Source of the DNA: a virus
Virus genome (UHGV): UHGV-0335272
Direction: 5' to 3' (one strand)
Length of the DNA stretch: 51,506 bases
Positions within the stretch are counted from its first letter, which is position 1. The number at the start of each line of letters is the position of its first letter. Made by a program: the position numbers and the translations under genes. The notes under the pieces are model-generated. The model saw only the letters and a program-made list of their open reading frames with translations. It searched no databases and was not told the DNA's origin. Below are positions 1 to 32,783 of this stretch, piece by piece.

Positions 1-494
1 AAACCAAGGTTTTTGACAAAGAGCACCGGGTCAGGGATATCCGCGCCGTTCTGGTCTTTGGCCAGCTTCTCCGCCAGCTTGTTCAGCACCGTGGTTGCAA
101 AGTTTGGATCGTTACCAAGGGCATCGGCCAGCTCTTTGAGCGTATCCAGCGTCTCAGGTGCGCTACCAGCAAGTGCGGCAAGCGCTTTGGCCACAAATTC
201 TGTCGTCGCCAGCTTTTTGCTGTTGTCACTGTTTGCAGGTGTGGGCGCAGTCGGCGTGCCGGTGAATGTCGGGCTGGCCTTTGTCGCGTACTGAGTATGC
301 GGGTCTGCTGCCGCGATGTGCGCAGCAAGGTCCGCTCCGCCTTTCTCAACCTGCTGCTTCAGGTATGACGTTCGTTTAGCCAGTTGCTTAGCCTGACGGT
401 TAGAAATCCCGTCAGGCCCACCCAGAACAGGGTCAGAGACCTCTATCTGGTAGATGCCGTCTTCCCACTGCGGGGTTTCAGGTAGGTTTGCCAT
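1..494 (-). CDS. Tail fibre protein, N-terminal fragment (gene continues beyond window start)
   Basis: Manual minus-strand translation from ATG at 494 is open to the window edge: MANLPETPQWEDGIYQIEVSDPVLGGPDG...KKLATTEFVAKALAALAG...TLDTLKELADALGNDPNF, typical tail-fibre N-terminal motifs; not in ORF track because no stop in window. Confidence 0.7.
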   Translation of the reverse strand, partial: MANLPETPQWEDGIYQIEVSDPVLGGPDGISNRQAKQLAKRTSYLKQQVEKGGADLAAHIAAADPHTQYATKASPTFTGTPTAPTPANSDNSKKLATTEFVAKALAALAGSAPETLDTLKELADALGNDPNFATTVLNKLAEKLAKDQNGADIPDPVLFVKNLG

Positions 495-496
495 GA

Positions 497-1075
497 TTAA
501 CTGCTCCCGTGGTTATAGCTGCCGTCATAGTTGACGGTGTTGTTGTAGCGAATTGCGACAGACTGATACTCCAGACTGGCAAGGTGACAGCGGGCCGGAG
601 CGAACGCGGCGAGGGTCTGTCGCAAAAGCGCAGCCTGGTCGTTAGTGATGGGCTGCCGGAGGATAACGCGATAAACCGCCCAGGCCTCGGCATCGCCATG
701 AACATAGATACCGTTGTATGTGTGTCTGCCGTCGTAGCCGATTTGACCGGTCCCCTCAATCAGGTCGACCTCGCCAAAACCAAAGCGACGGATGATCTCC
801 CGGATTGACCACGGCGTCCCCTTGTAGCGGTGCAGCTCAATGGCCGATTTAATCAGGGCACGGCGCACGTCATCAGCTTCAGCCAGTTCCCAGCCGTCGC
901 CGAACAGTGAGAACTGCTCGCACAGCCATGGCAGCGCAGAGCTGTCGACGATATCCACCAGGTAGACCATCAGGGCTTCCAGGTTGATGCTGTCCAGTCG
1001 CCCGGCCAGTCTGCCCAGCGTTCTGAGGCTGACATCCCCCTCAAGCGGTGGCGGAAGTTGTAGCGGTTCAGCCAT
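497..1075 (-). CDS. Tail/baseplate protein (P2 gpI-like, Mu gp48-like)
   Basis: 192-aa ORF immediately downstream of the J-like baseplate gene; position and sequence character fit the gpI family. Confidence 0.7.
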   Translation of the reverse strand: MAEPLQLPPPLEGDVSLRTLGRLAGRLDSINLEALMVYLVDIVDSSALPWLCEQFSLFGDGWELAEADDVRRALIKSAIELHRYKGTPWSIREIIRRFGFGEVDLIEGTGQIGYDGRHTYNGIYVHGDAEAWAVYRVILRQPITNDQAALLRQTLAAFAPARCHLASLEYQSVAIRYNNTVNYDGSYNHGSS

Positions 1076-2171
1076 CGGCTACCCCCGACATGGTGATGTT
1101 GATGGAGGTACAGTTGGCCCACTCGTTTTCCGCCACCACAACCAGCGCCAGACCGGGCAGTTCAACCTGATATACCCCTTCAACGGACAGGACGGCGTTA
1201 ATCTGTCCGGGCACGATATCCAGCCCCAGCTTTGCCCGACGAGCAGCGACCCAGCGCTGAATAGCATTATTGGCGGCGTCTTTTATCGAATTGACGTCCT
1301 GACCACGATAAACCGTGATGCGGGCATCGATGACGTAGTCCACCTGCACAGGCGTTTTTGCATGAACGGTATCGGTGAGCGGGCGGACTTTCTCATCCGA
1401 ACAGAAGCTCTCGACCAGCGTGAGGATGCTATTGTCCGGCAGACCGGTGCTGAGCAGCGGATACAGCTCGACAGTGCCGGGGACAGGGGAAAGAACGGCG
1501 ACGTCGACAATGCTGGGATGTGCCCCCATGGCATGAAAACGGTATGCACCACGGCTTCCGGCGTTAGTGAAGGACTCAGGAGCAAGCCTGATGCGCTCAC
1601 GCAGCCGGTCATTATCTTCCTGCTCTGACCCGCCAGAACTGGCGGAGAGATTGGTGACCTGCAGGTCAACGTTGTCAATCTCATCGAGCAACTGGCTGAC
1701 CTGAGCAGGCTGCCAGCCGTTACCGGCATCACCGGGTTCGGTACAGGTCGCCGTGATATTGACAAATTGCAGGCCCGCCTTCAGCACCACGTCCGCATCG
1801 GTGGCGAAGATAACGCTGTCGGAGGCACTGACACGGGTGCCTGCCGGTATCACTACATCCATCGCCATCGGTTCGTCGACAGCGAACTGGAGAGGTGTCG
1901 ATGCAGGCTGCGCGGCAAGGCGGTACACGCCAACAAGCTCGCCGAGGTAGTCAATCATCGGCTCACGGGCAAAGGCGACCAGATTCTGCTTCGCCGCCTC
2001 CTGTACTGCCACCCTGACCAGCATTTCGCGATAAGCCCAGAGGTCAATCAGCAGACGTTCGGCCTGTGCCGGATACAGCGTTTTACCGGCATCCGCCTCA
2101 TACTTCGCAATCATTTCTGCCGTGATTTTGTCGGCATCGCGTTCAATAAAATCGGGTTCTGTCAGCGCCAT
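1068..2171 (-). CDS. Baseplate J-like protein (Mu gp47-like)
   Basis: 367-aa ORF, baseplate J-like by sequence character and synteny between gpW-like and gpI-like genes. Confidence 0.75.
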   Translation of the reverse strand: MALTEPDFIERDADKITAEMIAKYEADAGKTLYPAQAERLLIDLWAYREMLVRVAVQEAAKQNLVAFAREPMIDYLGELVGVYRLAAQPASTPLQFAVDEPMAMDVVIPAGTRVSASDSVIFATDADVVLKAGLQFVNITATCTEPGDAGNGWQPAQVSQLLDEIDNVDLQVTNLSASSGGSEQEDNDRLRERIRLAPESFTNAGSRGAYRFHAMGAHPSIVDVAVLSPVPGTVELYPLLSTGLPDNSILTLVESFCSDEKVRPLTDTVHAKTPVQVDYVIDARITVYRGQDVNSIKDAANNAIQRWVAARRAKLGLDIVPGQINAVLSVEGVYQVELPGLALVVVAENEWANCTSINITMSGVADG

Positions 2172-2509
2172 AGCAGTTCCTGAGTCCGGGGTTGTCCGTC
2201 TGAGCCTTTCCAGCTCACCCGGAGCGTAAGATGTTCACCGTCAACGGCGGGTTTAACTGACGTCAGCTGGCAACGAGGCTCCCAGCGGCGAATGGCATCG
2301 ACGGACTCGCGCACGACGTGCGGAATGGCACGATCAACGGGCCAGTCGATATAAAGGTGCAGATTGCTGCCGAACTCCGGGCGGTGCGGGTCGCTGCCGC
2401 GAGGAGTGCGCAGAATGATTTGAATGGCCTGCCAGATATCATCCATCCCCTGGACGATTTCGCCGGGGGCCTGCATGGCCGGTTGCCAGAATACTGAGGT
2501 CGTTTTCAT
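2162..2509 (-). CDS. Baseplate wedge protein, GPW/gp25 family
   Basis: 115-aa ORF, size and position typical of GPW/gp25. Confidence 0.75.
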   Translation of the reverse strand: MKTTSVFWQPAMQAPGEIVQGMDDIWQAIQIILRTPRGSDPHRPEFGSNLHLYIDWPVDRAIPHVVRESVDAIRRWEPRCQLTSVKPAVDGEHLTLRVSWKGSDGQPRTQELLWR

Positions 2510-2564
2510 GGGGGCAGTATTGCCCCCGGAAGGGTTAGCCGATATTAAAGGCGTTTAAGAAGGT

Positions 2565-31818: not shown

Positions 31819-32236
31819 ACAGCGCCTCATTCAACTTATTCATATTGCCCGCAGCGACCTCCAGATGGATGAGGATACCTACCGCCAGATGCTGCAGGGG
31901 CTGACCGGCAAAGCCTCGACCAAAGGGATGGATATCACACAGCTAAACAGCGTGCTGGAATCCATGAAAAAGAAAGGTTTTCGCGTTAAGCCTGCCGGGA
32001 AATCCAGGTCCGGTTTACCGCTGGATAGCCATCCTCAGTCAAAGAAAATCCGTGCACTATGGCTTGAAATGGCTGCGGCAGGTGTCGTCCGTGACAGTTC
32101 AGAGCAGGCGCTGGCGCTATGGGTTAAACGGGAAACGGGCATCAGCGCGTTACGCTGGCTCAGCAATGAGCAGGCAAGTAGCGTTATTGAGAAACTGAAA
32201 AAGTGGCAGCGTAGGGCTGCGGGGGTGAAGCAATGA
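31808..32236 (+). CDS. GemA-like regulatory protein
   Basis: ORF trimmed to ATGATG with AGGTGAGG RBS; immediately upstream of mor. Confidence 0.6.
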   Translation: MMTKQRLIQLIHIARSDLQMDEDTYRQMLQGLTGKASTKGMDITQLNSVLESMKKKGFRVKPAGKSRSGLPLDSHPQSKKIRALWLEMAAAGVVRDSSEQALALWVKRETGISALRWLSNEQASSVIEKLKKWQRRAAGVKQ

Positions 32237-32622
32237 GCGACCTGAATCAGTTTCGTAGTAAAGGGCCGGAACTGTTGGTGGAACTGGCACAGCACACCTC
32301 TGAGACCGTCCGCGAGATTATTGATATCGAACCAGCAGTTGCCGACCAGATTGGTCAGGCCGTCGCGAACCGCATGATGCAGGTCTGGGGCGGCCAAAAC
32401 GTCTATTTCCCGATGGGCATGGTCTGGAAGGTCAGCCAGCGCGACCGTGAAATTTTCCTGGAGTTTGACGGGCGCAACCATCACGAACTGGCCCGTAAAT
32501 TTGGTGTTTCGCTACAGTGGGTTTACAGCGTGGTGAAGCGGGTCAGAAAAGAAGAACTGGATCGGATGCAGGGCAAACTGTTTGATGGTGAACCCGATGC
32601 CGATACGGGGAAAAAGGAGTAA
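32233..32622 (+). CDS. Mor/C-family transcriptional activator
   Basis: 129 aa; GGQNVYFP ... DGRNHHELARKFGVSLQWVYSVVKR matches Mor/C family pattern. Confidence 0.8.
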   Translation: MSDLNQFRSKGPELLVELAQHTSETVREIIDIEPAVADQIGQAVANRMMQVWGGQNVYFPMGMVWKVSQRDREIFLEFDGRNHHELARKFGVSLQWVYSVVKRVRKEELDRMQGKLFDGEPDADTGKKE

Positions 32623-32630
32623 TATCTGCA

Positions 32631-32676
32631 ATCAGACTGGTGCGAGTTCTGTTTTTTTCGGGCCGGTCTGATTTTC
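32631..32676 (+). terminator. Hairpin plus T-run downstream of mor
   Basis: AATCAGACTGG ... CCGGTCTGATTTT imperfect inverted repeat with internal T7 run. Confidence 0.35.
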
Positions 32677-32699
32677 ACATACTGTAAGGTTATTGCATA

Positions 32700-32783
32700 T
32701 TCCATCCAGTCTCTTCCCATGTTGACCCAGTTCTTCCCATAATTATCTCACTTGTTCCCTGTCATTTATCTCAAGTCTAATCA
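32700..32783. repeat. Prophage terminal region with direct repeats (candidate transposase-binding sites) and terminal CA
   Basis: CCAGTCTCTTCCCAT and CCAGTTCTTCCCAT direct repeats; element ends ...TCAAGTCTAATCA, then pepT codons begin. Confidence 0.5.

Follow-up and report, generated by a model that had tools for sequence, protein, structure and literature searches.

The window analysed here, the 51,506-nt UHGV virus genome UHGV-0335272, contains a transposable prophage whose late genes lie on the minus strand (positions 1–21989) and whose early genes lie on the plus strand (24958–32622), running up to an element end that abuts pepT. This divergence of the two arms sets it apart from Mu, and the locus raises three questions: what kind of phage this is, how it sits in pepT, and how its late genes are switched on when its single Mor gene stands at the far end of the opposite arm. 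We are highly confident that positions 1–32783 belong to one BcepMu-type temperate transposable myovirus of 35,337 bp, apparently intact, whose right-hand 32.8 kb they represent, and that it is integrated through a DDE transposase at about codon 100 of pepT with a 6-bp target duplication and governed, we infer, by a Mor-driven circuit. The initial annotation had proposed a Mu-like transposable prophage within pepT, and that proposal is upheld by TG...CA ends, a target duplication, a collinear set of BcepMu genes and the presence of a pepT part next to each end of the element.

The right end of the prophage is exact: the element finishes with ...CATTTATCTCAAGTCTAATCA at 32783, and the pepT frame resumes at 32784 (CGC GGC GGC GAC, encoding R-G-G-D) and continues through to 33713. 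The initial annotation was correct on this end, yet window position 1 is not where the element starts. The left end is situated 2,553 bp outside the window start and was recovered from a public ENA contig, ERZ1743331 NODE_51 (L003), found by looking up the gpI-like protein encoded at 497–1075. L003 matches window 1..11075 with 100% identity and continues for 3,001 nt to its left. This extension carries the remaining part of the tail-fibre gene and a Gin-like invertase, and then reaches the left end TGATGCGCCGCGCGATAAATG... and 100 codons of the pepT start (...VENYRG), so that the prophage spans window coordinates -2553 to 32783. The flanks were compared with intact pepT genes of Enterobacter asburiae, E. 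vonholyi, E. quasiroggenkampii and E. cloacae: these match the left flank as far as the last base ahead of TG and the right flank starting with the first base past CA, the two matches overlapping by exactly 6 nt. Because the intact gene matches both flanks in this way, the two arms belong to one insertion with no host DNA between them, and the missing half of pepT, which the initial annotation had left to be located, adjoins the far end of the same element.

Both ends of the element, read inwards, have the form TGAT-N9-GATAAATG-N12-TGAGATAA; the terminal sequences are TGATGCGCC... and ...TCTAATCA, and matching terminal repeats are present at the two outer ends only. The subterminal repeats, two per end and 23 bp apart, are presumed to be transposase-binding sites. 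At the pepT locus alone the size of the target duplication is ambiguous on account of the next base, and 5 bp would still be possible there. However, two E. coli relatives with the same TGAT...ATCA ends are flanked by unambiguous 6-bp duplications, CCATAG in rlmC and CGTAAT in nrfA, which together with the 6-nt overlap of intact pepT show that the duplication is the 6-bp CGCGGC and not the 5-bp CGCGG first proposed. In Mu, the target duplication is 5 bp.

The gene content places the prophage close to BcepMu. By BLASTP, 35 of the 48 window proteins of the prophage have BcepMu homologues (27–78% identity), and these are strictly collinear, the two maps mirroring each other. Identity reaches 78% for the tail sheath, 67% for the transposase (gp09), 59% for the transposition ATPase (gp08) and 53% for Mor. 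Matches to Mu are found in only 10 of the 48 proteins, namely TerS, TerL (48% identity to Mu gp28), portal, F, G, gp36, two baseplate proteins, GemA and Mor. In the annotated BcepMu genome, gp1 (Mor/C-like) and gp2 (GemA) stand at the extreme end of the bottom-strand early cluster, the repressor lies at the interface of the arms, and the holin, SLT endolysin, Rz with embedded Rz1, Mu-like head and P2-like tail genes occupy the other strand. The window prophage has the same traits: a repressor and its operators between the two arms; a Tn552/IS1604-like rve-type transposase unrelated to MuA with an ExeA-like AAA+ partner; TG...CA termini with repeated subterminal sites; a holin, together with the SLT endolysin and the embedded Rz1 that the initial annotation had noticed, Rz1 lying in another frame than Rz; and a Mu-like terminase and head joined to a P2-like tail (Pfam GpU, GpX, GPD, V, W, J, I, sheath and tube). 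Published descriptions of BcepMu-like viruses give two divergent clusters with a lysogeny switch at their interface, a Tn552-IS1604-type transposase and terminal CA dinucleotides (PMC2771037, PMC2628397), and B3-like phages also have an inverted early operon (PMC5977238). The divergent layout, implicitly treated as unusual at the outset, is therefore a published hallmark of BcepMu-like and B3-like phages, a family trait rather than an anomaly.

Some gene labels needed adjustment. The transposase and the "B ATPase" of the initial annotation stand as functional analogues of the Mu proteins, but neither has a BLASTP match to MuA or MuB, and in the PDB the transposase has weak matches to retroviral-type integrase cores only, with no MuA among them. 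The ner-like label derives from position together with a sub-threshold HTH_35 match (E 0.004).

Near-identical phages are already deposited. Klebsiella phage KP12 (the record is clone KP12_2) and Escherichia phage Phi06_2974 B share 92% identity over 87–91% of a 21-kb query (window 12000–33000), and a relative is carried by 641 of 5,426 complete E. coli genomes (about 12%). These phages, PhiKM and the E. coli prophages form the same lineage as the window prophage, with the same gene order, ends and 6-bp duplications and the same four late-promoter motif positions; the window prophage differs in its Enterobacter host, its pepT site, the content of its moron slot and two small open reading frames (ORFs) at 8491–9055. 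The relatives lie in unrelated genes (rlmC, nrfA), each flanked by a 6-bp duplication, an indirect sign of replicative transposition. Compared with BcepMu and phiE255, the window prophage shares the divergent clusters, Mor and GemA at the outer early end, TG...CA ends, the holin–SLT–Rz cassette, a Mu-like head and a P2-like tail, and with BcepMu also a gp19-like gene upstream of the holin gene and a Mor-type motif ahead of both the holin and the protease gene. The differences from BcepMu include its gamma-proteobacterial host and an extra Dam methylase; it has no counterpart of the acyltransferase gp53, the HU-like gp04 or gp06, and its repressor and small early genes have no detectable BcepMu homology. 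BcepMu, for its part, lacks the Gin-type invertible tail-fibre segment found here (PMC2771037). Pseudomonas phage B3 (Beetrevirus) has an inverted early operon ending in GemA and Mor, a transposase of 56% identity and an ExeA-like B subunit, and its holin, Rz and protease resemble those of BcepMu, yet it is a siphovirus with another tail module and other dyad half-sites.

Several points weigh against this assignment. The Pfam rve match of the transposase scores 32.0 bits, just below the 32.6 cut-off; the left 2.5 kb of the element is taken from the contig of another sample, identical over 11 kb; and megablast aligns only ~2 kb to BcepMu at ~70% identity. An ICTV-style genus threshold is ~70% genome-wide nucleotide identity, and membership of the genus Bcepmuvirus in the strict sense is doubtful, although GenBank places the relative PhiKM there. 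We consider it unlikely that the prophage is a BcepMu-type but fixed and defective remnant, unable to transpose or to form particles. The recurrence of the same pepT insertion in several ENA and Logan assemblies fits vertical inheritance; nevertheless, none of the 48 window genes is interrupted or shortened when compared with BcepMu and KP12, the two ends are intact, as are their repeats, the fibre segment occurs in both orientations among samples, and relatives occupy different loci in different genomes, which points to recent mobility of the family. On sequence grounds, the prophage is apparently intact.

Far less credible is a true Mu-family (Muvirus) prophage whose early arm was inverted by a rearrangement. 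The Mu-resembling GemA, Mor, TerL, F, portal, G and TerS proteins speak for it, as does an invertible fibre segment with a Gin-like invertase; Mu further shares with the window prophage the temperate transposable myovirus lifestyle, a Pm-like Mor promoter architecture and a non-coding G–I gap near the genome centre. However, the Mu matches are confined to the 10 proteins listed above and exclude the transposase and ATPase, the early arm runs opposite to the late genes, the tail is of P2 type, there is an SLT endolysin, the duplication is 6 rather than 5 bp, and the prophage has a single Mor/C-family gene with no C gene, middle operon, mom or com. Since the same layout is found in BcepMu and hundreds of relatives, it is ancestral and not rearranged. 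That a transposon-like early module and a P2-like late module are two adjacent elements, each with its own ends, is just as hard to sustain: the drop in GC to 43–47% at 22–25 kb and the variability of the genes there among relatives would suit it, but intact Enterobacter pepT reveals one 35.3-kb insertion with a single 6-bp duplication, matching terminal repeats are confined to the outer ends, the central region is common to KP12 and E. coli prophages and its gp19-like gene to BcepMu, and the low-GC genes behave as morons inside one phage.

How, then, does this BcepMu-type prophage activate its late genes? A phmmer search with Mu Mor, Mu C, BcepMu gp01 and the window's own Mor as queries finds exactly one Mor/C-family ORF in the 54.5-kb composite sequence (32233–32622), even at E<=10, and its product resembles Mu Mor (1RR7) and Mu C to about the same degree. 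This bears out the earlier remark that no C-like gene lies upstream of the lysis cassette, where the neighbour is the gp19-like gene, and that Mor sits about 10 kb from the late operon (10.2 kb from the Mor start to the holin start). The late-operon leader, in which the initial annotation had suggested looking for Mor/C-type promoter motifs, does contain a predicted promoter with a Mor-type dyad at 22017..22060. When the DNA upstream of the holin gene is aligned among six phages including BcepMu, a conserved block emerges with an abrupt start at TTATAACGCGCTTTAAAATCC, and three further copies were found by a mismatch scan and inspection of the late-arm gaps. The pattern TAA-N6-TTAAWA-N21-NANNCT has exactly four matches in the 51.5-kb window (0.01 in shuffles), all on the late strand and together occupying four of the five late-arm non-coding gaps. 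We refer to these predicted promoters as P-lys, P-head, P-tail1 and P-tail2.

The four sites resemble an experimentally defined target. In Pm-type promoters, transcription depends on the binding of Mor to a dyad centred at -43.5 from the mapped start. The Mor site consists of two 5-bp inverted repeats around a G/C-rich 6-bp spacer, located at -51 to -36; it takes the place of a -35 element and is followed by a recognisable -10 that lacks TGn (PMC4390567, PMC4287176). With Mu Pm (AGTAA-AGCCGG-TTAAT, 22 nt, TATCCT), the window sites have in common the 5+6+5 form, the 22-nt distance and the TTAAT/TTAAA half-site; judged from the hexamer, their placement would agree with -51 to -36, and no obvious TTGACA-like hexamer is seen by eye (unscored) in their -35 region. 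The same four positions match the pattern in KP12, PhiKM and two E. coli prophages. BcepMu has two strict matches, with TAAAGCCGATTAAAAGACC identical, upstream of its holin and protease genes, the latter gap holding the same motif TAAAGCCGATTAAAA as the P-head gap, and a further site upstream of gpW differs by one mismatch, while the tail-chaperone gap has a much weaker one with two mismatches in the dyad; the non-coding DNA of BcepMu and the window is otherwise unalignable. The strict window motif has no match in phage B3, whose Mor is diverged and which carries another dyad of the same 5+6+5 form, TTTCG-N6-CGAAA, in the G–I gap and upstream of its tape measure gene.

Against this promoter model stand the partial circularity of the shuffle statistic, the pattern having been fitted to the sites that it scores; the assignment of the Mu Pm -10 hexamer from geometry rather than from a published figure; and the derivation of the model from sequence. 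Independent support for the motif comes from BcepMu, Mu Pm, its confinement to gaps and its recurrence at the same positions in relatives. It would still be conceivable, if improbable, that the late genes are activated by another factor, such as another early helix-turn-helix (HTH) protein, or by read-through, the dyads serving some other protein: the early arm encodes two further HTH proteins (24958–25490), a separate invariant palindrome lies near P-head, and binding of Mor to the dyads is itself a prediction. However, the dyad architecture, the -10 spacing and the TTAAT half-site are those of the Mor site of Mu Pm, Mor is the sole Mor/C-family protein and shares 53% identity with its BcepMu counterpart, alongside which the motif is conserved, and the diverged Mor of B3 is accompanied by another dyad of that form.

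We therefore favour activation by Mor, which probably switches on all late operons directly, in a two-step cascade without a C step. In the lysogen, the CI-type repressor would bind three 17-bp operators and silence the rightward early operon. Upon induction, this operon would produce a Cro/Ner-like protein, the rve-type transposase and its ExeA-like AAA+ partner, the latter two copying the element by replicative transposition from its TG...CA ends; BcepMu-like myoviruses multiply by replicative transposition and carry random host DNA at their virion ends. Mor, the last product of the ~7.7-kb early transcript, would then bind the 16-bp dyad (5+6+5, consensus nnTAA-N6-TTAAn) in place of a -35 element and fire the four promoters of the opposite arm, for lysis and packaging, head, tail, and baseplate and fibre genes. 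The 10-kb distance would be immaterial because Mor would act in trans, and the last place of Mor in the early operon may supply the delay that Mu gets from its extra C step. Lysis would proceed by the holin, the membrane-anchored SLT transglycosylase and the Rz/Rz1 spanin.

Two of the predicted promoters have further features. At gpW (2507–2521, minus strand), AATACT lies just 6 nt from the ATG with no Shine-Dalgarno sequence, an arrangement shared by BcepMu, and the gpW mRNA may be leaderless; P-tail1 is preceded by a terminator-like hairpin at 8470–8483. A fifth dyad at 22890–22904 (plus strand, TAAACAGCGTTAATA) was considered as a Mor-dependent dam promoter and rejected, since TCATCC stands where the -10-like hexamer is due. 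In an E. coli prophage (L009), the copy of this fifth dyad is the P-lys dyad read from the other strand; in an E. coli relative without the moron, one dyad is common to the holin promoter and the dam side, back to back, and the moron may have been inserted beside a Mor site or by duplication of it. Dyad-like matches within the invertase gene, outside the window, were set aside as coding or enhancer sequence.

The gap between the G-like and protease genes holds a second cis element, the 17-bp CTTTATAAAGGCTTTAC (14731–14747, minus strand), which contains a perfect 10-bp palindrome. It is invariant in the window prophage, KP12, PhiKM, an E. coli prophage and Burkholderia phage BcepMu, while the flanking non-coding DNA is unalignable. 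The P-head dyad follows 84 nt downstream, and the prophage's physical centre is ~380 bp away. Of the 80 IMG/VR loci with the exact 16-mer that were examined, 34 also have a Mor-type motif 54–84 nt downstream; about half of the 16-mer matches are unrelated chance hits. An RNA hairpin or terminator is disfavoured, as the arms vary while the core is kept in diverged IMG/VR relatives, and a protein-binding site appears more likely. The central strong gyrase site of Mu sits in the same G–I gap, and by analogy CTTTATAAAGGCTTTAC may be its counterpart, or perhaps a further regulatory site. No description of these promoters or of the palindrome was found in the literature that could be searched, a set without the 2004 genome papers on BcepMu and B3. 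Taken jointly, a two-tier cascade in enterobacterial BcepMu-type phages, with one Mor driving four late promoters (one perhaps giving a leaderless gpW message) and CTTTATAAAGGCTTTAC as a new cis element, is a tentative proposal that we rate as possible but short of probable.

Between the holin and repressor genes, where GC dips to 43–47% (22–25 kb), lies a slot of variable content. The gp19-like protein has one clear hydrophobic segment in a simple hydropathy scan, by eye possibly a helix pair, and a weak PADLOC "2TM effector" match (7e-5). It is not a C-like regulator. Its gene has a sigma70-like promoter (22871–22844) and a terminator-like hairpin (22132–22115), which are only suggestive because a simple sigma70/terminator scan of 21.6–25.3 kb gave no more matches than shuffles; it looks like an autonomous moron, and its product may serve superinfection exclusion or defence. 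In relatives, the slot holds a DUF2441 gene (CP151067), a different gene (KP12), or, in another E. coli prophage, genes for a 401-aa protein and a nucleoid-associated protein.

At the other end of the late arm, the window starts exactly at a 21-nt inverted repeat (core AAACCAAGGTTT) bounding a 1.85-kb invertible tail-fibre segment (L003 11055–12909). Beyond the window start are two oppositely oriented genes for tail-fibre assembly, an alternative C-terminus of the fibre and, next to the segment, the Gin-like invertase, which would flip it. The segment has opposite orientations in two public assemblies, and since it occurs in both orientations in different samples, the invertase is active; inversion of the segment is probably the cause of the assembly break at the window start. 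Among the late genes, two small ORFs lie between the tube and chaperone genes (8491–9055, minus strand), one of them of the N4 Gp49/Sf6 gene 66 family; BcepMu has a counterpart of neither, and just one small ORF is annotated at this place in KP12 and the E. coli relatives. The Rz1 signal and lipobox read MKKARAIPLSACLLAVS|C, and the mature part is rich in proline, serine and threonine.

The host DNA in the window (32784–37155) comprises the 3' part of pepT, a 373-aa gene (33757–34878, minus strand), phoQ and phoP. The 373-aa gene had no match in an NCBIfam search; by the order of genes in E. coli, it may be roxA. The phoQ product shares 99% identity with its Enterobacter asburiae and E. vonholyi counterparts; therefore, the host belongs to the Enterobacter cloacae complex. 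The same pepT insertion is seen in several ENA and Logan assemblies. An exact search of species-representative genomes with the right junction gave no match. Enterobacter reference homology ends at 37155, beside phoP, where a second, unrelated prophage begins (37156–51506, GC 43–52%). Neither RNA families (Rfam, gathering thresholds) nor tRNAs (ARAGORN) were found anywhere in the window. Feature coordinates are collected in the table.

Table. Features of the window, in order of position, with evidence or remarks for some.
Feature	Position	Strand	Evidence or remark
Tail-fibre gene, 5' (constant) part	1..494	-	
P2-type tail module	497..11006	-	Pfam; 33–78% identity to BcepMu gp39–gp51, same order
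gpI	497–1075	-	
gpJ	1068–2171	-	
gpW	2162–2509	-	
P-tail2, predicted Mor-dependent	2516..2559	-	CTTAA-ACGCCT-TTAAT, 22 nt, AATACT; upstream of gpW
gpV	2565–3161	-	
gpD	3158–4327	-	
gpX	4315–4527	-	
gpU	4527–5411	-	
Tape measure	5411–7876	-	
Chaperone E/E'	7969–8398	-	
P-tail1, predicted Mor-dependent	8420..8463	-	CTTAA-TCCCCT-TTAAT, 22 nt, CATACT; upstream of chaperone and tape measure
Tube	9058–9579	-	
Sheath	9579–11006	-	
Head/packaging module	10996..19632	-	44–68% identity to BcepMu gp27–gp38; TerL, F, portal, G, gp36 and TerS also match Mu
Connector proteins	10996–12515	-	
Major capsid	12526–13479	-	
Protease/scaffold	13493–14590	-	
P-head, predicted Mor-dependent	14621..14664	-	TCTAA-AGCAGA-TTAAA, 22 nt, GAGACT; upstream of protease/scaffold
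Mu G-like	14805–15263	-	
Mu F-like	15266–16087	-	
Portal	16068–17564	-	
TerL	17564–19087	-	
TerS	19084–19632	-	
Lysis cassette and two small conserved genes	19629..21989	-	
gp26-like	19629–19940	-	
gp25-like	19933–20265	-	
Rz	20262–20912	-	GTG start at 20912; PHROG Rz-like spanin 5e-85
Rz1	20300–20566	-	Wholly within Rz, other frame; lipobox LAVS|C
SLT endolysin	20896–21636	-	Pfam SLT 2e-15; hydrophobic N-terminal region
Holin	21639–21989	-	Pfam Holin_2-3 3e-40
P-lys, predicted Mor-dependent	22017..22060	-	TATAA-CGCGCT-TTAAA, 22 nt, GATGCT; 27 nt upstream of holin ATG
BcepMu gp19-like gene	22129..22677	-	60% identity to BcepMu gp19; phrog_11791
Dam-type N6-adenine DNA methyltransferase	23082..23852	+	Pfam MethyltransfD12 3e-27; PADLOC MTase_II 5e-114
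Putative lipoprotein gene	23903–24436	-	Downstream of repressor
CI-type repressor	24464–24874	-	Pfam Phage_CI_repr 5e-19
Immunity switch, three copies of a 17-bp operator-like palindrome	24867..24935		TTATTCA-N3-TGAATAA; in 83-bp divergent region between repressor and ner/cro-like gene
Early operon	24958..32622	+	Pfam, PHROGs; BcepMu homologues in same order
ner/cro-like HTH	24958–25188	+	
IclR-type HTH	25185–25490	+	
DUF3102	25500–26411	+	
rve-type DDE transposase	26415–28184	+	
ExeA-like AAA+ transposition ATPase	28195–29352	+	AAA_22 2e-20
Small ORF	29355–29624	+	
DUF3164	29642–30253	+	
Small ORFs	30332–30910	+	
DUF2786/DUF7168	30914–31606	+	
Small ORF	31603–31818	+	
GemA	31769–32236	+	
Mor	32233–32622	+	PDB Mor 1RR7 at 1.6e-8
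Right end of element	32743..32783	+	...TTATCTCA-N12-CATTTATC-N9-ATCA; mirror of left end
Target-site duplication CGCGGC, right copy	32784..32789	+	Left copy precedes TG of left end, outside window
pepT 3' part (disrupted host gene, about residues 99–408)	32784..33713	+	NCBIfam PepT 1e-150, profile positions 112–407 of 409
Second prophage, tyrosine integrase	37180–38469	-	
Second prophage, RecE-like exonuclease	38969–40873	-	
Second prophage, DnaC-like loader	44450–45190		
Second prophage, Dcm-type cytosine methylase	48874–50361		

Much of this is already known: the layout is textbook for BcepMu- and B3-type phages and near-identical phages are on deposit. What the analysis adds is modest and limited to the prediction of Mor-type late promoters and a central palindrome that is conserved. 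For the host strain, the insertion means a disrupted pepT. For the family, the exact ends and the 6-bp duplication allow clean annotation of phages that are carried by about 12% of complete E. coli genomes and are also found in Klebsiella and Enterobacter. The variable moron slot and the central palindrome offer small leads for phage biology, and the four predicted Mor-type promoters provide a testable model for late gene expression without a C activator.

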